DNA from: Promethearchaeota archaeon
Lineage (GTDB): Archaea; Asgardarchaeota; Lokiarchaeia; Sigyniarchaeales; SOKP01
Assembly (NCBI GenBank): GCA_019058245.1
Contig: JAHPZJ010000026.1
Span: 21,291 to 85,290 of the forward strand
DNA length: 64,000 bases
Direction of reading: 5' to 3'
Made by a program: the position numbers and the translations under genes. Under the pieces are notes generated by a model. It was given only the letters and a program-made list of their open reading frames with translations, ran no database searches and was not told where the DNA came from. Below are positions 6,928 to 48,151 of the stretch, in pieces. Positions within the stretch are counted from its first letter, which is position 1. Every line of letters starts with the position of its first letter.

Positions 6928-8511
6928 ATGTCAAAAGTTTATGTTTGTAGAGAATGTGGATATGCATTCCCAGATGAACTTATTCACTTAATAGAAAATA
7001 ATATCCAAGTTTATTGTGAACGATGTGGATCACCTTTTATTATGGAAGGAGTTTCATTTAAACCCGCGACAACCCCATATCGAAGAATAAAAAAGTCCTC
7101 TATTCGAATATCTGAAAGCAAATCTTCTAAGATAGAAAAAGTTATTCAAGCTTTAAACAAAATATCTTTTATACCTTTTTTTATCTTTACAGTTATTATA
7201 CTTGGATTTTTAGCAGAATTAACTATTTCATGGGATATTAGGATCCTATTTAAGCGTCTTATACTTGGTCTAATAGGACTATCTTTCATAATTTATGATA
7301 GAACACGTATAACTCGAAAAGTAAGGGAGAAAAAATACAATGATATTTTTCTTGATGCATTCTGTTGGGGAATCTTAGGTTGCGTTCTATATGGGCTTGG
7401 TGTTATTCTTCTCATTAAGGGAATCTTTATTATTATCTATGTGATTACAGATTCTGAGAATGAATCTTTAAAAAAGTATGACTATGGATTACTTGCGAAA
7501 AACTCTTTGAATTACTTCTCTGCTAAAGCAGGCTTAGTAATCATACTTTTTGGATTATTTGGAATATATGCAAGTAGACTTTATTTACCTGAATTCGATA
7601 CTATAAATATAGATTTACCATTTGATATCCAAGTACCTGCAAGAATCTTCATTTTTCTTGGTTTCTTGATTATTTCATTAACAATTTTAATTATTGATAG
7701 TAGTTTAAAAAAGAAAACTGATGAAAAACAAGAATTTAAGGCTCTGGATGCAATTAAATATTTTATTTTGGGGATTTTTGGAGTATTCTTCTATTCAGCT
7801 GGTGTCTTCATATTATTCAAAGGGATCCTAATATTCTTTTTAATTTTTGGTAAACCAACAGAAGAGATTAAAAAAATACCAATAGAAGAAAAACAAATAT
7901 ATTATACTCCAACAGCTTCAACTCCACCAATAACTTCAAAACCTCCAATAACCTCTTATGAAAAAGTAGAAGAATTACAAAAAGAGAAAACAGAAGAGCA
8001 AATAGCTCAAATAACTAAAACAGAAGAAAAACTAATCAGTGTAGAACCTCAAAAAATTGAAGAAACCACAGTTAAAGAGTCTGAAAAAAGCCCGATAAAT
8101 ATAGATAAAAAAGAAAAGGCAAAGAGGGAAGAGGAATATAAATTAAAATTACATGATTCCCTATTACCTGTCAAAGATGAAAAGGATAAGAAATTAGTTA
8201 AAGAATATTTTTCAAAAATATTTTCAGTTCTTTCAAAGGACTTAAGGAAACAAATTCTCGATCTAAAAATTTCTAAAAAGGAAAAGAAAGAACTTTTGGA
8301 AGAACTTGCGTTCTTAACAAAAGAAGAACAAGTAAAATACATTGAAGCTGTTGTTAATTTATATAAAGAAATTCCAAAAAGATTAATTGCCAGAATTCGC
8401 AAACTTCCTAATGTTCGCCCAAAACATTATGATAAAATTTTAGATCAATTAAAATATATGGATTATGAAGAACAAATCAAATTTGTTCAATTCTTAGAGG
8501 AAAACGTCTAA
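6928..8511 (+). CDS. Zinc-ribbon multi-pass membrane protein with C-terminal helical cytoplasmic domain
   Basis: CRECG...CERCG at the N-terminus, duplicated TM block, Pro/Glu/Lys-rich linker, helical C-domain. Confidence 0.75.
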   Translation: MSKVYVCRECGYAFPDELIHLIENNIQVYCERCGSPFIMEGVSFKPATTPYRRIKKSSIRISESKSSKIEKVIQALNKISFIPFFIFTVIILGFLAELTISWDIRILFKRLILGLIGLSFIIYDRTRITRKVREKKYNDIFLDAFCWGILGCVLYGLGVILLIKGIFIIIYVITDSENESLKKYDYGLLAKNSLNYFSAKAGLVIILFGLFGIYASRLYLPEFDTINIDLPFDIQVPARIFIFLGFLIISLTILIIDSSLKKKTDEKQEFKALDAIKYFILGIFGVFFYSAGVFILFKGILIFFLIFGKPTEEIKKIPIEEKQIYYTPTASTPPITSKPPITSYEKVEELQKEKTEEQIAQITKTEEKLISVEPQKIEETTVKESEKSPINIDKKEKAKREEEYKLKLHDSLLPVKDEKDKKLVKEYFSKIFSVLSKDLRKQILDLKISKKEKKELLEELAFLTKEEQVKYIEAVVNLYKEIPKRLIARIRKLPNVRPKHYDKILDQLKYMDYEEQIKFVQFLEENV

Positions 8512-8513
8512 AA

Positions 8514-9407
8514 ATGTCGATGGAAAAAAGAAGAGAGCCCAGAGAAGATAAGAAAAAAGAAAAACTCCGAGATAGCTCATTTAGGCGTTTAGATTTTACA
8601 CCATTACAGGAAACAATTGAAGTAGAAAAAAGAGTATTAGAAAAAGAAGAAATTGTTGAAGAGCTAACTGAAATTGAAAAAGAAGTCTTAGATATTGCAA
8701 CTGAAATTTTGAAGTTAAAAAGATATGATACTGAATTTGAAATTGAATCAGAAAGTCAAATACAAAAGTATCCAATAATTGAGAAATTATATGCTAAATG
8801 TATTGCTAAACTTTCCTATAAGAAAGGATATAGCAAAGAGGAAATATTTTTAAATATTCGGAGTTTAGATGAAAAGAACTGGATAGTAACAAACGAAAGG
8901 CGTACTAAACTAGAAATCCTTACCAATGAAAAACTTGTTTCCATCCTTGAATTTATAAAAATTAATCCCGGAATTCATGCAAGAGATGATAAAATTGAGG
9001 CTGAACTAAACATAACTAGAACACCTTTTTTAAAACATGTAATGACTTTAGAACGCTTTGATCTTATTAGATCTAAGAAAATTGGCAAAACTCTTCATTA
9101 TTTTTTAAGTGATGTACCAGATGATTATGATAAATTCAAAGTTATTTTTCTGAATCCCTTGATCCCTAAAATATTGGAAGAAATCTTTAGGGATGAAGAG
9201 ATAACAGTCTCAAAAATAGGGGAAAATCTTGACATATACTCAGGTACTATTCTTTATCATATTAAAAAACTTAAGGATCTAAACCTTTTAAGAAGTGCTA
9301 ATAATAAAACTGGAAAAAAAATCTTTTTGATCAATATAGAACTCTTAAAAAAATATAATACGTTTTTTGATGAACCAGACTTTTCTCAACTCTTAAAAGG
9401 GCTCTAA
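8514..9407 (+). CDS. Archaeal tandem winged-HTH transcriptional regulator
   Basis: FIKINPGIH...HVMTLERFDLIRSKKIGKTLHYF, plus a second wHTH (SKIGENLDIYSGTILYHIKKLKDLNLL). Confidence 0.75.
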   Translation: MSMEKRREPREDKKKEKLRDSSFRRLDFTPLQETIEVEKRVLEKEEIVEELTEIEKEVLDIATEILKLKRYDTEFEIESESQIQKYPIIEKLYAKCIAKLSYKKGYSKEEIFLNIRSLDEKNWIVTNERRTKLEILTNEKLVSILEFIKINPGIHARDDKIEAELNITRTPFLKHVMTLERFDLIRSKKIGKTLHYFLSDVPDDYDKFKVIFLNPLIPKILEEIFRDEEITVSKIGENLDIYSGTILYHIKKLKDLNLLRSANNKTGKKIFLINIELLKKYNTFFDEPDFSQLLKGL

Positions 9408-9426
9408 ATTCTAATCAATTTTATAA

Positions 9427-10308
9427 TTACCTTTTTAATGCATTATTTATTAGAGGTAATACCTTTATCAATAATTTTATTGAGTTATCAATTCCATTCT
9501 CCATATCAGGATGAATTTCATTTGAATGGAGCAAATCATATTTAGGATTCCCTGGTAAATCCGAAACCGATAATACTGAAATTGTTTTTAAATTGTAGAT
9601 TTTACCAAGCAAAAATAATATAGATGATTCCATGTCTACGGATTGAACATTTATTGAAGATAATGCTCTTACAAAATCTAAACTTTCACAAAATAAAGCA
9701 TCAGTAGTCCATAAATTAGTTTCTTTAACCTTATTTGAAAAAAGGGTATTACCTTCATTTACAAACAATTCTCTTAACATTTCATTAGGTTTAGATATGA
9801 AAATAGTTTGATTTCCTGTAAATATATTTTGAAATTTACCCAATGGATTTGTAATTGACTGTAATTCATTAACTAATGATGGATTTTCTCTTAAATATTG
9901 AGGACTTGTTCCATCATCGCAAAAAGCGAATTTTGGAATTAAAATATCTCCTATATTAATTGAAGAGTTAACATTTTCAATTCCACCACACACATCAATT
10001 CTAATAATTATTGTTGTCTTACATCTTCTTAATGCTTCTACAGCCATCGCACAATTTGGAGCTCCAACTAAAGAACGAACTATGCTAACTTTGACATTAT
10101 TCAATTCCCCATTATAAACTCTTCCATAATTTCTTTTGTTCTGCAATTTTTGCAATAGTTTTTTCATTAAAGGCTTTATTGCAGGTAGAATTACTATTTC
10201 ATTAAGATTTGAGGGACTTGTCTCAAGTATCATCCTTACGATCTTTTCATCTACACTAATGAATTTTAATCCCACATTCAATAATTCACTTTTTATTCTG
10301 TTTAGCAT
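9427..10308 (-). CDS. Nucleoside phosphorylase family protein (PNP/UDP)
   Basis: VGAPNCAMAVEAL, IIRIDVCGG, DGTS, WTTDALF, VDMESS motifs. Confidence 0.85.
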   Translation of the reverse strand: MLNRIKSELLNVGLKFISVDEKIVRMILETSPSNLNEIVILPAIKPLMKKLLQKLQNKRNYGRVYNGELNNVKVSIVRSLVGAPNCAMAVEALRRCKTTIIIRIDVCGGIENVNSSINIGDILIPKFAFCDDGTSPQYLRENPSLVNELQSITNPLGKFQNIFTGNQTIFISKPNEMLRELFVNEGNTLFSNKVKETNLWTTDALFCESLDFVRALSSINVQSVDMESSILFLLGKIYNLKTISVLSVSDLPGNPKYDLLHSNEIHPDMENGIDNSIKLLIKVLPLINNALKR

Positions 10309-16311: not shown

Positions 16312-17550
16312 ATGTCTTCAGACATTTCTAGTTTTATAAAAGTTATTTCAAAATTTTTAGATTTAAAATCTACAAAAATTGATAAATTACAAAAGATTGA
16401 CGATGTCCTAAAATTACATATCAACTCCTATAAATTTATTGATAAAGAAGAGGCAACTATAATTAAACAATTATTAGAAGTTACTACGATTTTAGATGCT
16501 TCTAAATTAAATAAAGAAAATCCATTTGAAGTCTTAACTGAAATTGAGGAAACTGATGATTCTATCGAGTTAACAGCTAACTTGGAGCAAAAAATTGAGG
16601 AACTTAAAGTAAAATATCCAAAACTTGAGGAGAAATTAAAAAAAACAGCGACAATTAGCTCACTTATCGCAAGTGTAAAAGAAGATAAAGAAGGAATTGA
16701 TATAGAAGCTCAAAAAGTACTTGTGGCAGGGCTCGATAATGCAGGTAAAACCGCTACCTTGTCGAAATTTGGAGGGCGTTTAGGAATAAGTGATATGATT
16801 ACTACTCACCCTACTAAAGGGGTTGTTCGAATGAAGTTTGGTACTTCTAATCTCTCACTCTATATATGGGATCTTGGGGGTCAACAAGAATACAGAGAAA
16901 GATACTTAGAAAATCCAGAGCAATATTTTCTACAACTTGATTTGTTAATTTATGTAATTGATGTTCAAGATCCAGAAAGATTTGAAGAATCTCTTGAATA
17001 TTTTGAAAAAATTATTGATGAAATTATTTTATTAGAGGAGAATCCATATATTATAATTTTTATTCATAAGTATGACCCTGACATAAAAAATGACCCAAAA
17101 ATACTCTTGAATATTGAACTGTTAAAAGATAATTTAAATGAATTATTCAAAAACAAAAAAAATGATTTTAATAATGAAACATATTTAACTTCTATATACT
17201 CATTAATTTCTCGAGAGCCTCAGTTCGCTAAGTATATTAAAAATCTTATGAGTGCTAATCATTCACTTTCAGATCCTACTGTACGAAAAGTTGAGGGTTT
17301 AGGAAAAACACTTGAAGAGACCTTAAATGCGGTCATTAGATTATCTGAAAGTATTTCATCACAACTCAATGATCTTGATAGTCGTCTTAGAGCGATAGAA
17401 TCGGGAGCATTTCAAGTCGCGCAAAGTGGAATTCCCATTGAAATCGCAAATCCAAATCAAACTGGAATTAGACCCCAAGAAAATACTCGATTAAGAGTCC
17501 TAAATGAATTGAAAGATTTATTTAGTAAGAGAAAAAGCTTAGATTTTTAA
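16312..17550 (+). CDS. Asgard Arf-related small GTPase with N-terminal extension and C-terminal coiled coil
   Basis: G1 GLDNAGKT, G2 PTKG, G3 WDLGGQ, G4 HKYD, G5 TSI. Confidence 0.9.
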   Translation: MSSDISSFIKVISKFLDLKSTKIDKLQKIDDVLKLHINSYKFIDKEEATIIKQLLEVTTILDASKLNKENPFEVLTEIEETDDSIELTANLEQKIEELKVKYPKLEEKLKKTATISSLIASVKEDKEGIDIEAQKVLVAGLDNAGKTATLSKFGGRLGISDMITTHPTKGVVRMKFGTSNLSLYIWDLGGQQEYRERYLENPEQYFLQLDLLIYVIDVQDPERFEESLEYFEKIIDEIILLEENPYIIIFIHKYDPDIKNDPKILLNIELLKDNLNELFKNKKNDFNNETYLTSIYSLISREPQFAKYIKNLMSANHSLSDPTVRKVEGLGKTLEETLNAVIRLSESISSQLNDLDSRLRAIESGAFQVAQSGIPIEIANPNQTGIRPQENTRLRVLNELKDLFSKRKSLDF

Positions 17551-17554
17551 TTTT

Positions 17555-18280
17555 TTACTTTTTGTTCTCTCTTAAAATACTCCTTAATTGTTTTTCAATT
17601 GCAAGCAAAAAAATTAAAACAAAAATAATTAATGAGAGTAAAAAATATCCTAAATTACTAATTAATAAAGGATTTATTTGTTGATAATGAATTTCATACG
17701 TTGAAAATTGTTCTAAGTAAGAAAGAAATAGAACTAGTAGTGGTCCCATCAGATAAATAGCAATTAAAAATCCTATTATCCCAAATATACTACCAAAAAT
17801 AACATCCGAAGGATAATGAACACCAAGCTGAATTCTTGAAAAACATACGATACATGCAAATCCTAAAAAAAGAATTGTAATGAATAGTGAATTTAGAAAA
17901 AAGAATCCAATCAAAAGTCCATTTGCTACAATATTATAAGCATGCCAAGATGGAAAGCTTCTTGAAATTGGCCTTCGTTCAAAAACTATAATTTTATCTT
18001 CTTTAAAACTTTCAAATGGTCTTTTTCTTTTTACAGCTTGTTTGATCACTAATATTAAGACTAAACCAATAAGAAATGTGGTAGAGATATAAGATAGCAA
18101 AAATGGATCATACCAGATTAACAAATAAAAGGCAATTAAATATAGCCAAATAGTTTCTCTTCCGAAAAAAGAAAAAAATTTTAAAATATAGGTAATTGGT
18201 TTGCCTCCCATTCCGTTGTATTTTAAAATAATTTTCTGATCCCATTGGTCAATTTTCTTTAAAATATTTGATATTTTCAT
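17555..18280 (-). CDS. PAP2-family membrane phosphatase
   Basis: KQAVKRKRP, SFPSWH, SRIQLGVHYPSD. Confidence 0.9.
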   Translation of the reverse strand: MKISNILKKIDQWDQKIILKYNGMGGKPITYILKFFSFFGRETIWLYLIAFYLLIWYDPFLLSYISTTFLIGLVLILVIKQAVKRKRPFESFKEDKIIVFERRPISRSFPSWHAYNIVANGLLIGFFFLNSLFITILFLGFACIVCFSRIQLGVHYPSDVIFGSIFGIIGFLIAIYLMGPLLVLFLSYLEQFSTYEIHYQQINPLLISNLGYFLLSLIIFVLIFLLAIEKQLRSILRENKK

Positions 18281-18305
18281 TACAATCTAAAAAAAAGCTT
18301 CTATT

Positions 18306-19100
18306 TTAAATACTATCTAAATATGAATACATCTCTAACAGTTTTGGGATCTTATTTTCAAAATATTGTAAAGAATGCGAATCGGATCCTACAAAAAAAC
18401 TTGCACCCTCATTCTTTAACTTTTTTACAACATTCAGAGAAGGAAAAGTTCTCTTTATAGGAAATTTTAATCCTGATATATTTACCTCTATTTTGATATT
18501 ATTTTTTATACATAACCGCCCTAAATCTATTACACGATTATCAGAGACATCGCAATCATCTTCTGGTTTAAATTCATTATTATTTATATATCGGAAAATT
18601 GTATCTATATGACATATGTTCTTAAAAATTTTAGAATTAATCATCTTTCTACTAACTTCAAAATAGTCGTCAATAATTTTTTTCATTGGCACTTTATCTA
18701 ATAAGCTTGATAACCGTTCTTTACTTGTAATCGGATATCCTTTAATCCACTCATGAATGGTTCCTCCAATAAAATCCAATTCTTTTTCATAATCATCCAT
18801 AAATTCCATTAATAGAATTTCTCTATCCTCATAATAATCCACTTCTAATCCACTTAAAATAAAATCGTATGTCTCTTTTAACTTATCAATTTCTTCAAGA
18901 TAATCATTAACTCTCCCATTGTGAAATGGATTATTCTTATTAATTTCTATGTAATAAAGCTCATAATGATTAAGAAAACAGACATTAATTTGATGCTCTT
19001 CAGCGACTAGAATGTAATCTTCAAAAGTAGGACCATCATCGGCAACATCCTCACTCCAACCCTTCGAGTGAACATGATAATCAGTATATTTATACTTCAT
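18306..19100 (-). CDS. PHP-family histidinol-phosphatase-like protein (HisJ/HisK)
   Basis: DYHVHS, GLEVDY, GTIH, CHID, GSDSH. Start moved to the ATG at 19100, which removes the overlap with the upstream gene. Confidence 0.85.
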   Translation of the reverse strand: MKYKYTDYHVHSKGWSEDVADDGPTFEDYILVAEEHQINVCFLNHYELYYIEINKNNPFHNGRVNDYLEEIDKLKETYDFILSGLEVDYYEDREILLMEFMDDYEKELDFIGGTIHEWIKGYPITSKERLSSLLDKVPMKKIIDDYFEVSRKMINSKIFKNICHIDTIFRYINNNEFKPEDDCDVSDNRVIDLGRLCIKNNIKIEVNISGLKFPIKRTFPSLNVVKKLKNEGASFFVGSDSHSLQYFENKIPKLLEMYSYLDSI

Positions 19101-19149
19101 AAATAAACAAGATGAATAATTTAGGAAAAGAAATAAAAATTTAGATATG

Positions 19150-21057
19150 CTAATTAATTGAATCTTCTTTATCAAAAAATACACGATAAAATAGCTCTCT
19201 TTCTCCCTCTTCTGGAGGAGTTATCTTAGTATATCCCCCTTTGTGAATAACACGAATTGTACCTTTGTTTTGAATATGGATATTCCCATAAAATCCTTTA
19301 ATCCCTTTTTCTTTAGCAATAATAATTAAGTGCTGGTAGAGAAAAGTTCCAATTCCTTTCTTCCTATAGTCTTCTCTAACTACGAAACTATATTCTGCCA
19401 TGTTAGTTTTAGGATTTAAATAATATGTTGCGCTTCCAATCATTTCCTCATTATCAATTTCCCCAATGAATGCTCCTAGTGAGAAGACATTATCATAATC
19501 AATATTTACTTCATTTTGAGTTTTTGAGTGTGTGAATTCTTTTCGAAGTTCAAAAAAACGTAAATATCTATCTCTTTCATTTAATGAGTAATATAACTCT
19601 TTAAGTGCCTGCTCATCAGTCGTTTTTACAGGACGAATGTTAACTTTTTCATTATCCCTTATTGTAAAAATAGTTTCATATTCAAAAGGATATAAGCAAA
19701 TTCGACCTTCCTCATCGCATGGAAGCATTTGATCTGAAAATATATAATTTAATCTCTTAGCCTCATCTAATAATGATTGTCGGAATTTTGGGTGTGCTAT
19801 GCAAATTAATTCAAGAACTCTTTCACGAATAGTTTTTCCATGAAGATAAGCAACGCCCCATTCAGTTACAACATAATGCACATCTCCACGAGACAGCAAT
19901 ATACCCGCTCCTTCATCTAAGTGAGGAACTATACGTGATTTTTCACCATCTCTAGATGTTGAGGGTATGATAATTATAGGTTTTCCTCCTTTAGAAAAAG
20001 CCGCGCCTCTCATAAAATCGATAGTTTCTCCTAAACCTGAATAAAAACTATAACCTTCTGTTGCGGCGTTTACTTGACCTGTTAAATCTATTTGTCTGGC
20101 AGAATTAATAGAAACCATCTTTTTATTCCTCCCAATTAATATTGGATTGCATACATAGTCAGATGGATAAAATTCTATATAGGGATTATTATCAACAAAC
20201 TTATATAATTTATGTGTTCCTAAAGCAAAACTAGTAATAATTTTTTCAGGATGAAAATTTTTCTTTCTACAAGTTAAAAAACCATCTTCAATAAGAGGTA
20301 TTATATTATCGGTAATGTAATGAGAGTGCATACCCAAATCTTTTTTATCCGATAAGAATGGTAAAACTGCATTTGGTAAATCACCAAATCCAATATGAAT
20401 TGTTGATTTATTTTCCACTAAATTCGCAACATTTCTTCCTATTCTTTCTGCAATTTCATCTGGTTTATCAAATTGAAACTCTAGTAGAGGAGTATCATTA
20501 TAAACAAAAAAATCAATTTCTTTCATATGTATAAAACTGTTCCCTAGTGTTCTGGGCATTTGAGGGTTAATTTCAGCAATAGTAATATAAGATGATTGAG
20601 CAATTGGTTTTGCTATATCTATATTTAGACCTAGAGAACAGAACCCATAAGGATCGGGAGGTGAAACTTGTATTAATGCTACATCGACATGTTTTTTTCC
20701 AGTTAAAAATAGAGATGGAATTTCACTAGTGAAAATTGGGGTATAATCCGCTTGGCCTTTGTTAATTTCCTCACGAAGAGTTTTACCTATAAATAAAGCA
20801 TTGTGTCTAAAAAGATCTTCAGCTTTATCCTTAAAATATTTCTCTGGGCCTATTGTTAAAAAGTGAAGAATCTCGGTATCAATTAGCTTTTCTGACTGTT
20901 TAATCAATTCTGATGTCAGTATTTGAGGTTCTGAACAACCAGAATCAATAAATACTCTATTTCCTGGAATAATTTTCTTTATTGCTTCCTCAGCTGTAAT
21001 TTCCTTGTCTTTCCACTTTTTTCTCCACTCTTCTACTATCACTTCAGAATTCATCAT
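19150..21057 (-). CDS. Acetyl-CoA hydrolase/4-hydroxybutyrate CoA-transferase-like domain fused to C-terminal GNAT acetyltransferase
   Basis: DVALIQVSPPDPYGFCSLG, IDLTGQV, DFMRGA, DVHYVVTEWG, IAHPKFR. GNAT part: RDRYLRFF...AEYSFVVREDYRKKGIGTFL. Confidence 0.9.
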   Translation of the reverse strand: MMNSEVIVEEWRKKWKDKEITAEEAIKKIIPGNRVFIDSGCSEPQILTSELIKQSEKLIDTEILHFLTIGPEKYFKDKAEDLFRHNALFIGKTLREEINKGQADYTPIFTSEIPSLFLTGKKHVDVALIQVSPPDPYGFCSLGLNIDIAKPIAQSSYITIAEINPQMPRTLGNSFIHMKEIDFFVYNDTPLLEFQFDKPDEIAERIGRNVANLVENKSTIHIGFGDLPNAVLPFLSDKKDLGMHSHYITDNIIPLIEDGFLTCRKKNFHPEKIITSFALGTHKLYKFVDNNPYIEFYPSDYVCNPILIGRNKKMVSINSARQIDLTGQVNAATEGYSFYSGLGETIDFMRGAAFSKGGKPIIIIPSTSRDGEKSRIVPHLDEGAGILLSRGDVHYVVTEWGVAYLHGKTIRERVLELICIAHPKFRQSLLDEAKRLNYIFSDQMLPCDEEGRICLYPFEYETIFTIRDNEKVNIRPVKTTDEQALKELYYSLNERDRYLRFFELRKEFTHSKTQNEVNIDYDNVFSLGAFIGEIDNEEMIGSATYYLNPKTNMAEYSFVVREDYRKKGIGTFLYQHLIIIAKEKGIKGFYGNIHIQNKGTIRVIHKGGYTKITPPEEGERELFYRVFFDKEDSIN

Positions 21058-21483
21058 AATTATATCTCAAAATTAAATTTTTTAATTATAAGTGCAATAT
21101 CTAATCTTTTTTTTAATTATTTCCCAACAATATAATGTTTTTGAAATTATAAATATATAATTTTTGGTAGAATTAATGACTTTAGCTTAATATAATGATC
21201 AGTAAAGACCAAATAGTTCAATTTGATACATAAAAAACATACCTATATACTTCTATTATCAGTTAGTCGAAGAAAAATTTCTATAATTATAATTAAATTA
21301 TAAGTAAAATGTTTAAATGGAATTATATACATTTCCCAATTGATTAAATTCTAATCATTTACACTAGAAAAATTTAAATGTAATGCATCAAAAAAAAAAA
21401 ATCTTTAAAATTATTGAAGAATTTATTAAAATTAGATATTTTAACAATTAAAATAAAAAGAAAATTTATTTAAGTGAAGAAAT

Positions 21484-23466
21484 TTGTCAAATAAAGATAA
21501 GAAAATGGAAAGCATTCTAACTGAGAATAGAATATTCGACCCAGTAAAACTGAACGAGAATTTTGCGAAGACTGGAATGTCTTTTGAAGAATATAAAAAC
21601 CTTTACAAAAGATCAATCGAAGATTTAGAAGGTTTTTGGGGAGAACAAGCTAATTCTCTTGATTGGTTTACTCCATATGAAAAAGTTTGGGAAAAAACCG
21701 ATTTATTTCCTGGCAAGTGGTTTAGTGGTGGTAAACTTAATGTTGCTTATAATTGTCTTGATAGGCATGTAAAAAATGGAAAAGGAGATCAAGTAGCTCT
21801 TATTTGGGAAGCTGATGAACCCGGACAAGTTAAATCTTATACTTATAAAGAATTACTTGCTGAAGTAAGTAAAACTGCTAATGCAATGAAAAAAGCGGGA
21901 TTAAAAAAAGGGGATAGAGTTACCATTTGGCTTCCTATGATTCCTGAATTAGCAATAATCATGTTAGCATGTGCTCGGATTGGTGTTATTCATTCAATAG
22001 TATTTGGTGGATTCTCAAAAGAAGCAGTGAAAGATAGAATTGAAGATTCAAATTCTCGATTATTATTTACTAGCGATGAAACCGCACGAGCTGGAAAATT
22101 TTATCCAAAAATGTCCGATGTAGTCCAGATTATCAATGATGTACCTACAATTGAACATGTAATTGTTGTAAAACGAACTGGAAGAGAAGTACCCCATACT
22201 GATAAAGATATTTGGTATCATGATTTTATAGAAGGAATGAGTGAGGAATGCGAACCTGAAATAATGGATTCTGAAGATACCCTATTCATTCTTTATACTA
22301 GTGGTACAACGGGAAAACCAAAGGGAGTAAATCATACAACAGCAGGATATATATTATATACATCTTTTACTCACAAACTTGTATTCAATTATCAAGATGG
22401 AGATATCTGGTACTGTACTGCTGATATTGGATGGATCACTGGACATTCTTATATTACATATGGACCTTTAGCTAATGGTGCTACAACTCTTATGTTTGAG
22501 GGAGTTCCAACTTACCCTGATGTTGATCGATTCTGGGATATTGTTGAGCGTCATAAAGTAACTCATTTCTATACGGCCCCTACTGCAATTCGTGCTTTAA
22601 TGAGATATGGTGATGAACCTGTAAAAAAACATGATCTTAGTTCCTTAAAAGTTTTAGGTACTGTTGGTGAACCTATTAATCCAGAAGCATGGACGTGGTA
22701 TCATCGTATAGTAGGTAAAGAACGTTGTCCAATTGTTGATACTTACTGGCAAACGGAGACTGGAGGTTTCATCATGACTCCTATAGCAACAGCCACACCC
22801 ACTAAACCAGGATCATGCTGTCTACCATTCTTAGGTATTAAACCTGTTATTTTCGATTTGGAAGGGGAAGAAGTTACAGAACCTCATGAAGGCGGATATT
22901 TTGCAATAGCAAGTCCTTGGCCTGGAATGTTAAGGGATGTTTGGGGCGATACTGAAAGATTTAAATCGACTTACCTTGAACGATATCCCGGTTATTATTA
23001 CACTGGTGATGGAGCACGACGAGATGAAGATGGATATTATTGGATTTTAGGTAGGTTAGATGATGTTATTAAAGTATCTGGGCATAGAATTGGTACAATG
23101 GAAGTAGAATCCGCTCTTGTGAGCCATCCTAGTGTTGCAGAAGCTGCTGTTGCGCCATTTCCACATAAAATCAAAGGACAGGCAATTTGGGCTTATGTAA
23201 CTCTTATGCAGGGCGTTGAGAAATCAGCTAAATTATCTAAAGAAATAAGAATGCATGTACGGCAAGAAATCGGACCAGTTTTTCAACCTGATGTTATTCA
23301 GTTCGCTGATGCATTACCTAAAACGAGAAGTGGTAAGATTATGCGTAGAATCTTAAAAGCTATCGCAGCAGGAACGGATATTGGAAATGTAACCACTCTA
23401 GCGGATCCCTCTGTAGTAGATGACCTACTGGAAGAACGGAAGAAAATGGATATTGAGACGGATTAA
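21484..23466 (+). CDS. acs: AMP-forming acetyl-CoA synthetase
   Basis: YTSGTTGKPKG, TADIGWITGHSY, VGEPINPEAW, DTYWQTETG, LPKTRSGKIMRR. Confidence 0.97.
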   Translation: MSNKDKKMESILTENRIFDPVKLNENFAKTGMSFEEYKNLYKRSIEDLEGFWGEQANSLDWFTPYEKVWEKTDLFPGKWFSGGKLNVAYNCLDRHVKNGKGDQVALIWEADEPGQVKSYTYKELLAEVSKTANAMKKAGLKKGDRVTIWLPMIPELAIIMLACARIGVIHSIVFGGFSKEAVKDRIEDSNSRLLFTSDETARAGKFYPKMSDVVQIINDVPTIEHVIVVKRTGREVPHTDKDIWYHDFIEGMSEECEPEIMDSEDTLFILYTSGTTGKPKGVNHTTAGYILYTSFTHKLVFNYQDGDIWYCTADIGWITGHSYITYGPLANGATTLMFEGVPTYPDVDRFWDIVERHKVTHFYTAPTAIRALMRYGDEPVKKHDLSSLKVLGTVGEPINPEAWTWYHRIVGKERCPIVDTYWQTETGGFIMTPIATATPTKPGSCCLPFLGIKPVIFDLEGEEVTEPHEGGYFAIASPWPGMLRDVWGDTERFKSTYLERYPGYYYTGDGARRDEDGYYWILGRLDDVIKVSGHRIGTMEVESALVSHPSVAEAAVAPFPHKIKGQAIWAYVTLMQGVEKSAKLSKEIRMHVRQEIGPVFQPDVIQFADALPKTRSGKIMRRILKAIAAGTDIGNVTTLADPSVVDDLLEERKKMDIETD

Positions 23467-23647
23467 CTCTATTTTTGTTTATTTTTTTCATTTTTTTAAA
23501 ATTCGATCATTAAAATTACATCATTATTTAGCACTTTTAGTTTATTAAGTCTCATAAAAAATAGCTATTCAAATATTTTTAGTTAGAGATATTTCTAATT
23601 TATAATAGAAAGAATAAAAAAAAATCAAAGGAATTTCGAAATATTTT

Positions 23648-25057
23648 TTACTTTCGACGATTTACAATCCTTTCAATAAGAATAATAATAATAACTATTA
23701 TCGCAATTGGAGGGAATATTAATAGAAATAACCTAAATACCCATAATTCTGCTATATGTTCAGCAAGTACAAACATCAATCCATCTATAAAAGTACTAAT
23801 CAAGGAAATACATGTAAATAGAAATAAAATATTGTTCATTTTATTATCGCTTAATTCCTGCAATCTTTCTTTACCTCTATTATGTAAATATTCAAATACA
23901 TCCAATTTTTCCATAAAAAAAGCTTCCATTTGAGAATTCCTCCAACTTTCAATAGATTGTTGGTATATAAAATGGGCAAATGGGGCTAAATTTTGTAAAT
24001 AATTCGATTTATTTACAGAATACAATTCCATTTCCATTCTTAATTTATTTATCCATCTAACAGCTTTTCTTACACGTCGCTTTTGTAATCCTTGATAAGA
24101 TGCAAGCTGATTCAAACGTCTATATAATATTTCATTAAAAACCTGCAGAGTACGCCATTCAATTTCCAAATATCTCAGTATCTCTTTAGCATAATTAAAT
24201 TCTTTATCATTTAATCCAGCCCATAAACTATTTCCCCATCCAATATGGACAAATCCATCTGTATCTTTTGCAAAATTTATACGACCTTCAGGATGACTAA
24301 CTTCGATAATTTTTCTCATAATCTCATCTATAGGCAATATATCCTGTTGATTTTTTTTGTTTTTTATAAGGACTATATGACCCCATAAGGGAATATCAGA
24401 TTGTTGATTACTAAACAATTCCTCATAGTTAATTATGGGTTTTCCAATATCTAATTCATCAAAAATCTCCTTAGATATTCTAAAAACATTTTTTCCAATC
24501 GATTCAGTTTCTTTTAATAGATCCGGAAATCGTACAATTTTATCTAGTAATTTTGCCATTATTTTTTTTGGTTCTTCCTCCTGTATTTTTATGAAATCTT
24601 GTGTAAATTCTATTTCTAGCTTACAATAAATCATTCCAATACCATATTCATGAAAACTCATGGATTCAAAAATAAGTAATGGAGGTGCTTTAAATATGTT
24701 CATTCCAATTATATCTAAAGGTAAAGTATATTTTTTTTTAACTTGAATGGTAATAATACTTTTATCTCTTTGAGTAGCACCACTTCCTCCTGTACCTGTA
24801 AATAAAAGCTCATCTATCTCACCATGGATCATTTTTTCATCTGTTTTCGCCCACTTTTTTATACTTTCGATTGGATTAACCTCATCCTTAAACTTTTCAA
24901 TTAAAATCTGGTCAGGATAAATTTTTTCTAGTTTTAAAAAGAGAAGTTTTCTTATTTTTTCATATTTTCCAATTAAAGTAGAATAATCAAAAACCATTCT
25001 TGAATTGAAAGGAGTGATAACATAAAAAGTATCTTTTCTATCATCTACCATTTCCAT
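23648..25057 (-). CDS. Hypothetical protein with CorA-like architecture (large soluble domain, long helix, two C-terminal TM helices)
   Basis: 469 aa, ending ...DNKMNNILFLFTCISLISTFIDG...FLLIFPPIAIIVIIIILIERIVNRRK. No GMN motif. Confidence 0.55.
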   Translation of the reverse strand: MEMVDDRKDTFYVITPFNSRMVFDYSTLIGKYEKIRKLLFLKLEKIYPDQILIEKFKDEVNPIESIKKWAKTDEKMIHGEIDELLFTGTGGSGATQRDKSIITIQVKKKYTLPLDIIGMNIFKAPPLLIFESMSFHEYGIGMIYCKLEIEFTQDFIKIQEEEPKKIMAKLLDKIVRFPDLLKETESIGKNVFRISKEIFDELDIGKPIINYEELFSNQQSDIPLWGHIVLIKNKKNQQDILPIDEIMRKIIEVSHPEGRINFAKDTDGFVHIGWGNSLWAGLNDKEFNYAKEILRYLEIEWRTLQVFNEILYRRLNQLASYQGLQKRRVRKAVRWINKLRMEMELYSVNKSNYLQNLAPFAHFIYQQSIESWRNSQMEAFFMEKLDVFEYLHNRGKERLQELSDNKMNNILFLFTCISLISTFIDGLMFVLAEHIAELWVFRLFLLIFPPIAIIVIIIILIERIVNRRK

Positions 25058-25312
25058 TATTGATTCACAATATTATAGTATATCTAAAATTTATTATTAA
25101 TAATTATATTTCTAATTAGTAAAATAATTTTGGAAAAAGAAAAGCACAAATTAATTAGAGTATTAATGAAAATTAGTAATAAGCAATCCCAAATTTCTTT
25201 ATAGATTTAGAACTATCTTTTTCATTAATATTAATAATTAATAAGGTCATAAATCTAATTTCTCAATTTAACAAAAAAAAAATGAAAATGGAAAGGTTCT
25301 TTTCTTATAAAA

Positions 25313-25861
25313 CTATGGTATTAAAAGGGGTCCTAAAAGAAAATACCATAAAAAGTATCCGAAAATACTACCTGAAAGAGCACCTACTAAGAAAGTTAAC
25401 CTAACATTCTTAGGAATTTTATAAAGAGATACTAAAAGTATAGCTATACTAATAAGAGCAAATAATATTAAAAATGTTTCTGGATGAATCTTAATTATAT
25501 CTGCCATTATATATTCATCGATAGTATTTGATGGAGTAATTAAATAGCTTATTAAGTTAAATATGAATCTTGCTCCCATTGATATGAAAATTAGACAGAT
25601 TAAGAAATTTATATTAAAGAAGTTATTTTCAAGAATTTTTCTACTATGGTTTTTATTATAACTAACTAATAGTATAATAAAAGGAATTATACATTGGATC
25701 CAAGTTGATAAAGGACCCCCTAGAATAAAAAAGAAATATAGTGATTCTTCATTAGCAGGATTGATGGAAGTAGTTGTATATGAATAATGGATTTGTGCTT
25801 CATATCCATTTATTATCGCAACTAGAAAATGCCCTACTTCATGGAGTAGAGTTCCAATCAT
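25313..25861 (-). CDS. Membrane zinc metalloprotease-like protein (M50-like)
   Basis: LLHEVGH and ILGGP plus TM helices. The frame stays open 35 codons upstream of the ATG, so the start may be earlier (possibly ATA at 25951). Confidence 0.7.
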   Translation of the reverse strand: MIGTLLHEVGHFLVAIINGYEAQIHYSYTTTSINPANEESLYFFFILGGPLSTWIQCIIPFIILLVSYNKNHSRKILENNFFNINFLICLIFISMGARFIFNLISYLITPSNTIDEYIMADIIKIHPETFLILFALISIAILLVSLYKIPKNVRLTFLVGALSGSIFGYFLWYFLLGPLLIP

Positions 25862-26322
25862 AGGAATAAATATAAAAATGCAGAATATTTTTACTATTAA
25901 AATTATATACTCATTATTCTCTATAGTTCTACTTGATATAGTTAAATTTATTTTTGAATCACTTTTTTACCCAAGTTCCAATATCATATAATAAATTTAA
26001 TTTTTCATAAACTTTTTTCCCATAAATCATCTTAACGTTAATTTTATTTTCCAATTTTCCATTCTATTGGTGCTTTCCAGATTCATTTTTTCTTTAATAC
26101 TCTCTGGAGGTGTTCAACCAAAAGCAATATGCAATGCCTCTATCCGCTTTGAAAACTTTCCACCCTCAGGTGTTCTAATAATATATTTAGTTCATATATA
26201 TCTAGTAGTAATAGTTTTTTTTTAAAAGTATAAACATAAATAAATCAATTTTTTTAAATATTTCAGAGATTTTTTGATTTTTCTTATTAGATATTCATTT
26301 TATTAATAGAAAGGTTTTAAAA

Positions 26323-27993
26323 TTGAATTTAGAGATTGAAGAATTATCTGAAAAAGTAAGAGGAATGGAATCTAAAGAAGCTGTGGAAATGCTAGTTTCA
26401 TTATTTTCTACATCAAAGAATGTAGAATTGAAAATAAAGGCCGTAGATCTTTTAAATGAGCATAATGATATTGGAAATAAAAGTTTTCAAGAAATAAAAA
26501 CTGTTTTTATAAAAGATCATCATCCTCGATTAAGGCTTAAATTAATTAACTTAATAGCACAATATCATCAATATGAAGGAAGTGATTTTTTAAAGGAACA
26601 GTATAAAAATTGTAAAGATGGAACAGTTCGAAAACATCTAATCAATAAAGTTGGAGAGAATAGTCTAAATGATTCAATATCGTTTCTTATCGAATCATTA
26701 AGTGATTCTGATTTTGAAGCAAAAAGAGAAGCAATAACCCTCTTAGGAAAAACTAATGCGGCTGAAGCACTAAAACCATTGATAGATATGTTTCATTTCA
26801 GGAATGCTGATATTTATAATGCTCTGATTAATTCTATTGTAAAAATTGGAAAGAAAGGAAACTTAAAACCAATACTTGAGTATGTAGATATAGAAGATCT
26901 TTATATTAAAAGAGAGATTCCTGTGATACTTGGAAAGATAAAAAATAAGGAGAGTGAAAAAGTTTTAATAAACCTTTTAAAAGATAGAGATGCAATAATA
27001 CGGAAAAATTCTGCAACGGCTTTAGAAAAAATAGTTGAATTGAAAAATATAAGGCATATTTTAGAATTATTAAAAGATGAAAATATTGAAGTAAAGAAAG
27101 AAGCTATACGAGTATTGGGTAATGTAGAGAGTAAGAGGGCTATCTCCCCTTTATTTGAAATACTCAAAGAAAATGACGTAAAACTAAGAAATCTTGCTAA
27201 AAATGCTCTTTTTAAAATTTTTGAAAAATATAAATCCTTTGATCCTATTTATGAAATAGTAAAGGGAAGAAACATTAATGCTAGGAGGGAAGCAATAAAA
27301 CTATTAGGAATATTAAAAGATGTTAATGCTATTGACTTTTTGATATCTATTTTCAATAGTAAAGTAGCAAGTTTACGAGGCTCTGCTTATAGATCACTTT
27401 TAAAAATTTTAGATAACAAAATTGACAATAAAATTCTTAATGCATTATCAGACAAATCTTGGCAAGTAAGAATGTTTTGTGTCAAAATCCTAGGTGAAAT
27501 TAAAGATTCACAAACATTAGATCAGATTTTTAGTTTAATTGAGGATGAACACGGGAGCGTTAGAAAATCAGCTGTTGATGCATTAATCAAATTTGAACAT
27601 GAAGAAGTATTAAATTTTGCAAACAACGCTCTGAAGAGTCCAAACTGGAAGACTAGAAGAGCCGCAGTTAAAATATTATTAAGAACTGGAAGTCAGGATT
27701 CATTAAACTCTCTGATTTCATGTTTAAATGATGATGATGTATATATAAAAAGCTGGGCTGCTATGGCATTAGGAAATCTTAAGGATATAGATACTATTGA
27801 ACCTTTTATCCAGCTTTTGAAAGAAAATGATGAAAAAATAAGAATATCTGCCGTAAAGGCTTTAGGTGAGATTGCAAATAAAGAATCAATTAAACCTCTC
27901 ATACAAGCATTAGGAGACGATAATTGGAATGTAAGAAAAGAAATTGAGAAAGCTCTAAATAAAATTGATCCTGATTGGATGAGCTATTTATAA
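26323..27993 (+). CDS. HEAT-repeat (PBS lyase-like) protein
   Basis: Recurrent LxDxxxxVRxxAxxALGxI units across 556 aa. Confidence 0.9.
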   Translation: MNLEIEELSEKVRGMESKEAVEMLVSLFSTSKNVELKIKAVDLLNEHNDIGNKSFQEIKTVFIKDHHPRLRLKLINLIAQYHQYEGSDFLKEQYKNCKDGTVRKHLINKVGENSLNDSISFLIESLSDSDFEAKREAITLLGKTNAAEALKPLIDMFHFRNADIYNALINSIVKIGKKGNLKPILEYVDIEDLYIKREIPVILGKIKNKESEKVLINLLKDRDAIIRKNSATALEKIVELKNIRHILELLKDENIEVKKEAIRVLGNVESKRAISPLFEILKENDVKLRNLAKNALFKIFEKYKSFDPIYEIVKGRNINARREAIKLLGILKDVNAIDFLISIFNSKVASLRGSAYRSLLKILDNKIDNKILNALSDKSWQVRMFCVKILGEIKDSQTLDQIFSLIEDEHGSVRKSAVDALIKFEHEEVLNFANNALKSPNWKTRRAAVKILLRTGSQDSLNSLISCLNDDDVYIKSWAAMALGNLKDIDTIEPFIQLLKENDEKIRISAVKALGEIANKESIKPLIQALGDDNWNVRKEIEKALNKIDPDWMSYL

Positions 27994-46483: not shown

Positions 46484-48151
46484 ATGAAGCTGATTAAGGG
46501 ATTTACTGCTGAACCAGAAGGAAAAGAGAATTATCAGTTAAATGTTATTAATTTTATGAAACATGCAGTTAGAAATTATGCAAGACAAGAAATTGTTAGT
46601 AGAAAACTTGATGGTAGTCTTTTTCGATATACCTATAAGGAATCATATGAAAGAATGCAACGATTAGCAAATGCATTAGAATCGATTGGAGTAAAAGTGG
46701 CTGATCGTGTTGGAGTATTAGCATGGAATACACACCAGCATTATGAGATATATTATGGGCTACCAGGAATGGGTGCTGTAATGGTTACCTTAAATTTACG
46801 TCTTGCTTCTCAGGATTTAACATATATTGTTAATCATTCTGGAACAAAATATCTAATTGTCGATGAGGATTTAATTCAAATAGCTGAGAATATAGCAGCT
46901 TCATGTGATAATATAAAAGGTTATATTATTATTACTGATAAGGATCTAAATGATATTGAAACAAATTTAGCACCTCTCTATAGTTATGAAGATCTTTTGA
47001 AGAAAGCATTACCAGAATATAAATGGTTAAATTTAGATGAAAATTCAGCTTATGCTGCTTGCTATACAACAGGAACTACTGGTAAACCCAAAGGTGTTTA
47101 TTACTCACATCGAAATTTGTATTTACAATCAATGATGTTTGCGGCTTATTTTTCATTTACCGTAAATGATGTTGTTTTACAGTTAGTACCTATGTTCCAT
47201 GTTCTGGGTTGGTCAATGCCGCATGCAGCTACGTATATTGGTGCTAAGTTAATTTTCTCTGGAAAGTGGAATTTGAATGATGTTGAGGATCTTACAAAAA
47301 TTATGGTTCAAGAAAAGGTCTCTCTGACTGGAGCTGTTCCAGCTGTTTTTATGGCAATGCTAGAAGTTATTAGAAATTTGGAAGAAAAACCAGATTTTTC
47401 TCATGCTCGCTTGATTTGTGGTGGTTCTGAGCCTCCAATTACATTAATGCGTGGTTTTTGGGATGAAACAGGAGGAGAAATAATTCATTCTTATGGTTCT
47501 ACTGAAGCTATGTCAAATAGTACACTAAACTCGTTTAAACCATGGCTTAAGAAAGAACTCTCAGAAGAGGAACTATGGCAACTTAAGAAAAAACAAGGTA
47601 TAATCGTCTCAGGGCTTGATGTAAAAGTTGTTGATGAGGAAGGTAATGAAGTTCCTTGTGATGGAAAAACTTCAGGAGAGGTTCTTTTTCGTGGTCCTTG
47701 GATTACAAATAGCTATTATAAATCACCTCAAACAAGTAGTAGTTTTACTGAGGATGGATTCTTTAGAAGTGGTGATGTTGGCTGTCTTGACTCAGAGGGA
47801 TATCTCAAGATTACTGATAGAATTAAGGATGTAATTAAAAGTGGTGGAGAGTGGATTAGTTCAATTGATATGGAGAATTCATTGGTATCACATCCAGGGG
47901 TTCTTGAGGCAGCAGTTATAGGGATTCCTCATCCAAAATGGGATGAAAGACCTTTAGCTTTAGTTGTTTTACGAGAAGGATTTCGATCTATAAATAAAGA
48001 GGAAATATTTGGACATCTTACGAAAACATTTGCTAAGTGGCAATTACCTGAAGAGATTTTATTTGTAGAGTCAATCCCTAGGACTAGTGTAGGGAAACTT
48101 GATAAAAAAACAATGCGAATTCAATATCAAGATTTGTATACAAAAAGTTAG
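46484..48151 (+). CDS. Fatty acyl-CoA ligase (AlkK/DmdB-like ANL enzyme)
   Basis: YTTGTTGKPKG, VPMFHV, YGSTE, DVIKSGGEWISS, PRTSVGK. Confidence 0.92.
   Translation: MKLIKGFTAEPEGKENYQLNVINFMKHAVRNYARQEIVSRKLDGSLFRYTYKESYERMQRLANALESIGVKVADRVGVLAWNTHQHYEIYYGLPGMGAVMVTLNLRLASQDLTYIVNHSGTKYLIVDEDLIQIAENIAASCDNIKGYIIITDKDLNDIETNLAPLYSYEDLLKKALPEYKWLNLDENSAYAACYTTGTTGKPKGVYYSHRNLYLQSMMFAAYFSFTVNDVVLQLVPMFHVLGWSMPHAATYIGAKLIFSGKWNLNDVEDLTKIMVQEKVSLTGAVPAVFMAMLEVIRNLEEKPDFSHARLICGGSEPPITLMRGFWDETGGEIIHSYGSTEAMSNSTLNSFKPWLKKELSEEELWQLKKKQGIIVSGLDVKVVDEEGNEVPCDGKTSGEVLFRGPWITNSYYKSPQTSSSFTEDGFFRSGDVGCLDSEGYLKITDRIKDVIKSGGEWISSIDMENSLVSHPGVLEAAVIGIPHPKWDERPLALVVLREGFRSINKEEIFGHLTKTFAKWQLPEEILFVESIPRTSVGKLDKKTMRIQYQDLYTKS

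Follow-up and report, generated by a model that had tools for sequence, protein, structure and literature searches.

A CoA-transferase-GNAT fusion with a rebuilt catalytic centre, encoded divergently from acetyl-CoA synthetase in a Lokiarchaeial genome

The stretch of DNA analysed here (the window) comprises 64,000 nucleotides of contig JAHPZJ010000026.1 (positions 21,291 to 85,290 of the forward strand) from the Promethearchaeota archaeon assembly GCA_019058245.1, with a G+C content of about 28% and with the nearest relatives of its proteins in metagenome-assembled genomes of Lokiarchaeota/Promethearchaeota. It contains a gene for a protein, P0001, in which a coenzyme A (CoA)-transferase-like domain is joined through a linker to a C-terminal GNAT domain of the Pat type, and this fusion gene stands head-to-head with acs, the gene of the AMP-forming acetyl-CoA synthetase P0002, with a spacer of 426 bp between them (Table 1). 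A scan of positions 18000–26000, spacer included, against Rfam returned nothing credible. The catalytic centre of the transferase-like domain is a precise rebuild under strong constraint.

The N-terminal domain of P0001 was assigned to PF02550 (4e-60) and PF13336 (1e-26) and the C-terminal one to the GNAT family PF00583 (1e-12). HMMER comparison with the solved 4-hydroxybutyrate CoA-transferases (4HB-CoAT) 9vag, 3eh7 and 3gk7 gave E values from 1e-119 to 1e-100, the best match being 9vag (1e-119), and in the AlphaFold2 model of the protein (pLDDT 90.6, pTM 0.86) the N-terminal domain matched 2oas by Foldseek with a TM-score of 0.95 and a root-mean-square deviation of 1.5 Å. The score with the NCBIfam equivalog TIGR03948 (butyryl-CoA:acetate CoA-transferase) was 247.6 bits, against a cut-off of 674.8.

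The translation includes DLGMHSHYITDN and YSGLGETIDF, and in the HMMER alignments to solved structures His246 falls under the catalytic Glu of the G[IV]H[ST]E motif and GLGE under G[FTV]GGQ, so that the initial annotation, made from the sequence without database searches, was right in stating that the catalytic Glu is lost and that the GxGG motif reads GLGE. The catalytic residues were mapped by aligning P0001 with Escherichia coli ScpC, a close relative of AarC: E286, N339 and G380 of ScpC correspond to His246, Cys303 and Glu344 of P0001, with the same spacings of 53 and 41 residues as between E294, N347 and G388 of AarC. In AarC these are, respectively, the nucleophile, the internal oxyanion-hole carboxamide which orients the nucleophile, and the external oxyanion hole, the Gly of the latter being reported as strictly conserved in active class I enzymes (PMC4876117). 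Two further positions are changed, namely the Gln of the mobile QXGhG active-site loop (PMC11659651, PMC3180442) and the Gln equivalent to 4HB-CoAT Q337, which hydrogen-bonds CoA (PMC11659651), bringing the replacements in the catalytic centre to five: Q221H, E246H, N303C, G344E/D and Q345T. As judged from the alignments, the replacement of the nucleophile together with the two oxyanion-hole residues rules out canonical class I CoA-transferase chemistry in P0001.

Table 1. Positions of the features discussed, numbered from the first nucleotide of the window
Feature	Position	Strand	Remarks
Fusion gene, P0001	19150-21057	-	635 aa; CoA-transferase-like domain, linker and Pat-type GNAT
4-Hydroxybutyrate-CoA-transferase-like domain	19753-21030	-	Residues 10-435; full fold, rebuilt catalytic centre
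His221 codon	20395-20397	-	Replaces Gln of the mobile QXGhG loop
His246 codon	20320-20322	-	Replaces nucleophile Glu (4HB-CoAT E238, AarC E294, ScpC E286)
Cys303 codon	20149-20151	-	Replaces internal oxyanion-hole Asn (AarC N347, ScpC N339)
Glu344-Thr345 codons	20023-20028	-	Replace external oxyanion-hole Gly (AarC G388) and CoA-contacting Gln (4HB-CoAT Q337)
Pat-type GNAT domain	19198-19719	-	Residues 447-620
Glu555 codon	19393-19395	-	In AEYSFVV
Divergent intergenic spacer	21058-21483		AT-rich; between fusion gene and acs
acs gene, P0002	21484-23466	+	660 aa; AMP-forming acetyl-CoA synthetase
Lys618 codon of Acs	23335-23337	+	In PKTRSGK
Second AMP-forming acyl-CoA ligase	~46610-48115	+	PRTSVGK; possible further substrate
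PHP/HisJ-like phosphoesterase gene	18306-19100	-	~50 bp downstream of fusion gene
Arf/Rag-like small GTPase gene	16312-17550	+	Extra N- and C-terminal regions
HEAT-repeat protein gene	26323-27993	+	556 aa

The new residues are kept throughout the orthologues. Comparison of 127 orthologues (group A) with 108 Glu-retaining relatives showed His at position 246 in 122 of the former (Tyr in 4, Leu in 1), Cys at 303 in all 127 and either Glu (70) or Asp (57) at 344, and the string at positions 216/217/221/246/303/344/345 reads NKHHC[ED]T in 115 of them. Elsewhere the family pattern is preserved: group A retains 54 of the 58 positions that are at least 85% conserved in the Glu-retaining relatives, and the outright differences at this level are confined to positions 246 and 344. 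The ratios of non-synonymous to synonymous substitution (dN/dS; pairwise NG86, 348 pairs), which are approximate since dS was about 1.2 and synonymous sites thus near saturation, were 0.048 (transferase-like domain), 0.053 (GNAT) and 0.139 (linker), indicating purifying selection on the transferase-like domain as strong as on the GNAT. Chance or sequencing error as the source of the substitutions was rejected by the conservation at positions 246 and 344 over the 127 orthologues. Simple decay to a pseudo-enzyme was also rejected, the changes being confined to the catalytic centre and invariant, with a dN/dS of 0.05. Of the earlier proposal of a pseudo-enzyme sensor, the loss of canonical chemistry thus stands, the nucleophile and both oxyanion-hole residues being replaced, but the label itself is too simple for a centre consisting of a constrained His/His/Cys/acid/Thr set.

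The C-terminal GNAT is, by its closest matches and motifs, of the Pat type, in agreement with the original assignment of a fused Pat-like domain. Its best solved matches were PatZ (9it0, 2e-16), Streptomyces lividans PatA (4nxy, 5e-14), Sulfolobus Pat (3f8k, 6e-10) and mycobacterial Pat (4orf, 2e-5). The alignment takes in the pre-GNAT segment, and Glu555 of AEYSFVV aligns with AEFAVLV of PatZ. The acetyl-CoA loop RxxGxG is present as RKKGIG at residues 565–570. In proteins of this kind the acetyl-CoA P-loop is defined as R/Q-x-x-G-x-G/A and the strand Glu has been proposed as the catalytic base (PMC8556138). The accessory domain of P0001 is PF02550/PF13336 and not the homologue of NDP-forming acyl-CoA synthetases that defines type I/II Pats. 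The only Pat-type GNATs detected in the genome are two CoA-transferase-GNAT fusions, P0001 and a second one described below (paralogue B).

With 959 bits on TIGR02188, the divergent neighbour P0002 is a genuine acetyl-CoA synthetase of the AMP-forming type, and it is the only Acs detected in this 3.09-Mb, 76%-complete genome. It keeps the acetylatable Lys, as had been noted before, in the motif PKTRSGK, making Lys618 a probable target of acetylation on sequence grounds, and the second acyl-CoA ligase with PRTSVGK that had been pointed out as another candidate is likewise present in the window. The PX4GK target motif was found in 13 of the 15 AMP-forming ligases of the genome. Deacetylase matches in the genome comprise four SIR2 and two HDAC-type proteins, all encoded on other contigs. 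The start listed for acs is a TTG (region 21484-21505), with an in-frame ATG seven codons downstream; the upstream start may be real, because relatives align from residue 1–3.

The pairing of the fusion with acs was followed in relatives. In a Lokiarchaeial sample of 80 loci (70–96% identity) acs was found divergently upstream in 59 of the 63 loci with enough flanking sequence, and a PHP/HisJ-like gene on the same strand downstream in 71 of 76; the latter was not found in 20 loci fetched from other Asgard families. In the window the PHP/HisJ-like gene is probably co-transcribed with the fusion gene. Its product scored 82.9 bits on TIGR01856, under the cut-off of 90.2, and with the GTG listed as its start, at 19184, it would overlap the fusion gene; the ATG at 19100 is the likelier start because relatives align only from residue 22–29. 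An 84%-identical group-A protein also occurs on a contig labelled 'Candidatus Nanopelagicaceae bacterium' (L056), which is probably a mis-binned Lokiarchaeial contig.

Outside this group the Asgard family f9 has a 45–47% identical homologue, which was divergent from acs in all six loci fetched and in about 16 of the 22 for which both coordinates are listed; here a gene of the MFS transporter type and an ARPP-1 gene lie between the fusion and acs, with an H+-pyrophosphatase next door. One f9 genome carries a tandem duplicate of the Glu-retaining fusion gene adjoining acs (L105:6007-7824 and 8014-9828). In family f18 fusion and acs are convergent and adjacent, and no acs was present within about 6 kb of the homologues in families f2, f20 and f24. 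The linkage thus occurs in three arrangements (adjacent divergent, divergent with MFS/ARPP between, and convergent) among lineages only 41–47% identical. Every sampled Asgard family with the fusion also has Acs, and five families have Acs without the fusion. Elsewhere in the window lie two eukaryote-like Asgard genes unrelated to the fusion, one for an Arf/Rag-like small GTPase and one for a HEAT-repeat protein.

The expectation that loss of the Glu and synteny with acs would go together as a general rule did not hold. The acs-linked fusions of f9 and f18 retain both Glu and GGQ, and Glu-retaining acs-linked fusions are also present in 7–9 metagenome loci. Conversely, a Glu-less bacterial lineage of Desulfobacterales type (P0143), with Gln and Gly-Asp in the centre, lacked a neighbouring acs in 14 loci. 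P0001 shares 53% identity with paralogue B (C10:89123-90937), which retains Glu (GVHSEVFSDG) and GGQ, has TatD-like and HhH-GPD genes on its flanks and lies away from acs. In the IQ-TREE phylogeny group A and its sister P0124, paralogue B and the f2 proteins form one clade (SH-aLRT 99), all members of which retain Glu except group A and P0124; the latter, which has Phe/Ser/Asp at the centre (Phe at 246, Ser at 303), was not found in five sampled genomes. Among 101 fused representatives Glu was present in 61 and absent in 40, with at least 18 changes on the tree, and the Asn-to-Cys replacement at position 303 recurs in many fused lineages, some of them Glu-retaining (strings DGQECGQ and DGHECSQ). 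Unfused proteins lacking the Glu numbered 16, most of them in one clade, and an independent-pairs test of fusion versus Glu loss had too few contrasts.

Two further variants of the family were encountered. An unfused clade of about 425–440 aa (P0228, P0235, P0237, P0240, P0242, P0252, P0256, P0259, P0261, P0265 and P0271) has Gly at the nucleophile position and in most members also His at the internal oxyanion-hole position (string DGQGHGQ), which looks like another non-canonical active site. Longer fusions are represented by P0127, P0128, P0177 and P0200 (about 960 aa) and P0160 (1013 aa), of which P0127 and P0128 are longer by about 340 residues at the N-terminus and P0160, P0177 and P0200 extend past the C-terminus of the match.

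The partnership with acs is, accordingly, wider than the loss of Glu and, on the tree, probably older. In the simplest history an ancestral CoA-transferase-GNAT, probably active, was already partnered with acs and was then duplicated in a Loki-type lineage, copy A keeping the position next to acs and acquiring the rebuilt centre, and copy B retaining an intact transferase centre.

The wider context was examined by clustering the neighbours of 80 metagenomic fusion loci. The commonest was an ADP-forming acyl-CoA synthetase (ACD; 25 loci), followed by Acs (11), an HDAC-type deacetylase (10) and a DRTGG/AAA_26 protein (5). The neighbouring ACDs carry SHTGSLAG, which we take to hold the catalytic His. 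An operon in the order ACD, fusion, HDAC recurs in L143, L144, L145, L146 and L147, the HDAC sometimes with a response-regulator receiver domain, and in L143 and L145 it is followed by a convergent acs; in several of the 10 HDAC-containing loci the HDAC gene lies directly downstream of the fusion. This context follows the AcuA/AcuC logic and supports the view that proteins around the acetate/acetyl-CoA node are reversibly acetylated.

In bacteria, the standard example of metabolism controlled through protein acetylation is acetyl-CoA synthetase, which is acetylated reversibly. In Bacillus subtilis, acsA is divergent from acuABC, which encodes the GNAT AcuA and the HDAC-type deacetylase AcuC. 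The locus studied here resembles this arrangement in that acs is divergent from an acetyltransferase gene, and in relatives of P0001 an HDAC-type gene follows the latter; however, AcuA is a stand-alone GNAT of another subfamily, and in the window no deacetylase gene is adjacent (for the Bacillus system see also PMC8556138). With Salmonella enterica Pat, E. coli PatZ/YfiQ (9it0, 9isq) and S. lividans PatA (4nxy) the fusion shares a homologous GNAT (2e-16), the pre-GNAT segment, the AE-strand Glu and RxxGxG. In these type I/II Pats, too, the GNAT is fused to a large enzyme-derived domain whose own catalytic residue is gone, and they are known to act on the PX4GK lysine of Acs. P0001 differs from them in having a class I CoA-transferase fold in place of the fold of NDP-forming acyl-CoA synthetases, in being archaeal (Asgard), and in that its centre is rebuilt rather than merely missing one residue. 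The type III Pats (the cAMP-GNAT of Mycobacterium tuberculosis/M. smegmatis, 4orf, and the actinobacterial ACT-GNAT, PMC6434083) similarly combine an N-terminal module with a C-terminal Pat-type GNAT, the module binding a ligand and controlling a GNAT that acts on acyl-CoA synthetases, but the module of P0001 is about 435 aa long and enzyme-derived.

As to the accessory domain itself, P0001 shares 40–50% identity, TM-scores of 0.92–0.95 and 54 of the 58 family positions with 4-hydroxybutyrate/butyryl-CoA:acetate CoA-transferases (AbfT 3gk7, 2oas and RipA 3qli). Unlike them, it has other residues in place of the Glu nucleophile, the two oxyanion-hole residues, the Gln of QXGhG and the Gln that contacts CoA, and it carries a fused GNAT. 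The intramolecular CoA-transferase ThnP (PMC11659651) is also a family-I-like fold without the canonical active-site Glu, but its enzymatic activity has been demonstrated, a Glu occupies a topologically similar place and there is no GNAT, whereas P0001 is not known to have an activity. The type I–V scheme of bacterial protein acetyltransferases contains no CoA-transferase module (PMC8556138). No paper on a CoA-transferase-GNAT fusion was found in the literature searched, which is not proof of absence overall, and relatives are named in databases only 'GNAT family N-acetyltransferase' or 'acyl-CoA hydrolase/GNAT'.

Taken together, we lean slightly towards P0001 being an analogue of Pat that has Acs, at Lys618, and perhaps other ligases as substrates, with the rebuilt pocket as a non-turnover ligand site. 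The GNAT would acetylate this catalytic lysine and possibly further AMP-forming ligases with PX4GK; acetylation of Lys618 would block adenylation and so switch Acs off, and the sirtuins or HDACs of the genome would reverse it. The rebuilt pocket would turn over no substrate and would instead bind CoA, acyl-CoA or another ligand, which would set the activity of the GNAT and tie acetate activation to the acyl-CoA/CoA state; in that case the domain would serve as a sensor. A non-turnover site is proposed because the Glu-to-Ala variant of AarC is inactive, yet its closed site binds CoA and an acetyl-CoA analogue (PMC4876117), and because the inactive N-domain of Pat binds acetyl-CoA tightly and regulates the GNAT (PMC8556138).

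Several points weigh against this reading of P0001 as an Acs-directed Pat analogue. Synteny among close relatives is partly inheritance, and with PX4GK so widespread among the ligases of the genome Acs may not be the sole or the main substrate. A homologue, the Pat of Sulfolobus, has the chromatin protein Alba as a substrate. There is no deacetylase gene adjacent to the fusion gene at this locus, and since Glu-retaining relatives are acs-linked as well, regulation of Acs does not require the loss of catalysis. Thr345 takes the place of the Gln that hydrogen-bonds CoA, so that CoA binding itself may be altered, and the invariant His/His/Cys/acid set looks, from its composition, more like a built site, metal-binding or catalytic, than like a passive pocket.

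An enzymatic role of the N-domain, with a new or relocated nucleophile, appears unlikely. The carboxylate of Glu/Asp344, or a Cys303-His246-acid triad forming an acyl-S-enzyme, would then make the protein bifunctional, its N-domain transferring CoA, hydrolysing acyl-CoA or donating acyl groups to the GNAT. Five invariant new residues at the old reaction centre with a dN/dS of about 0.05 speak for it, as does the recurrent Asn-to-Cys change at 303. Also in its favour, Glu loss goes with an acid in place of the GG glycine in two or more lineages independently: Loki group A together with P0124, its sister, and the lineage of Desulfobacterales type, P0143, with 14 loci. Mack and Buckel are said to have found in 1997 that an E-to-D mutation turns glutaconate CoA-transferase into a hydrolase. 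A further precedent is ThnP, active without the canonical Glu by means of one in a topologically similar place (PMC11659651). However, position 344 is occupied by Asp (57) nearly as often as by Glu (70), an unusual variation in a nucleophile that has to be placed precisely, Tyr or Leu replaces His246 in five orthologues, the external oxyanion-hole Gly lost here is reported to be strictly conserved in active class I enzymes (PMC4876117), and the sister P0124 with Phe/Ser at 246/303 indicates that the triad is not ancestral. The alternation at 344 and the Phe/Ser of the sister argue against a strict catalytic role, and neither settles the matter.

The same five orthologues with Tyr or Leu at 246 and the same sister lineage, which lacks the Cys and the second His, also count against a putative metal site formed by His221, His246, Cys303 and Glu/Asp344, which would be either a structural filler or a site binding the free thiol of CoASH and thereby reading CoASH versus acyl-CoA. 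We regard it as unlikely, even though the ligand set is typical of Zn sites, the residues are near-invariant and, in AarC and 4HB-CoAT, the four corresponding positions all lie no more than a few angstroms from the reaction centre (PMC4876117, PMC11659651, PMC3180442). Improbable, too, is that the N-domain is a scaffold for dimerisation or stability, the GNAT having some physiological target other than Acs (further acyl-CoA ligases, ACD, chromatin proteins or a small molecule) and the acs neighbourhood reflecting co-regulation or inherited gene order. Such a role would fit with the dimeric state of 4HB-CoA-transferases (PMC3180442), the PX4GK motif in most ligases of the genome, the predominance of ACD over Acs among the neighbours in the wider family (25 versus 11 of the 80 loci) and the lack of acs linkage in paralogue B and the f2, f20 and f24 homologues. 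Yet a scaffold has no need of an invariant rebuilt active site, acs linkage persists in three arrangements across strongly diverged lineages, and the HDAC directly downstream in relatives argues for acetylation of a protein rather than a small molecule.

A bolder version, which we consider rather unlikely, is that the reaction centre has been converted as a whole to a new functional site (His221/His246/Cys303/Glu-Asp344/Thr345), either an acylating Cys-His-acid triad or a metal/thiol site telling CoASH from acyl-CoA. If true, such a triad would amount to a chemistry new to this fold, one that might supply the fused GNAT or gate it, and with either site the Asgard archaea would control acetate activation through an undescribed kind of metabolite-reading acetyltransferase.

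The locus points to a widespread and uncharacterised class of Pat-type acetyltransferases with a CoA-transferase accessory module, lying outside the type I–V classification, in which the module appears intact in some lineages and rebuilt in others. The presence of intact-centre and rebuilt-centre paralogues in one genome offers a natural comparison for the passage from an enzyme domain to a regulatory or newly functional one, and this comparison would show how acetate activation is coupled to the CoA pool in these syntrophic organisms.

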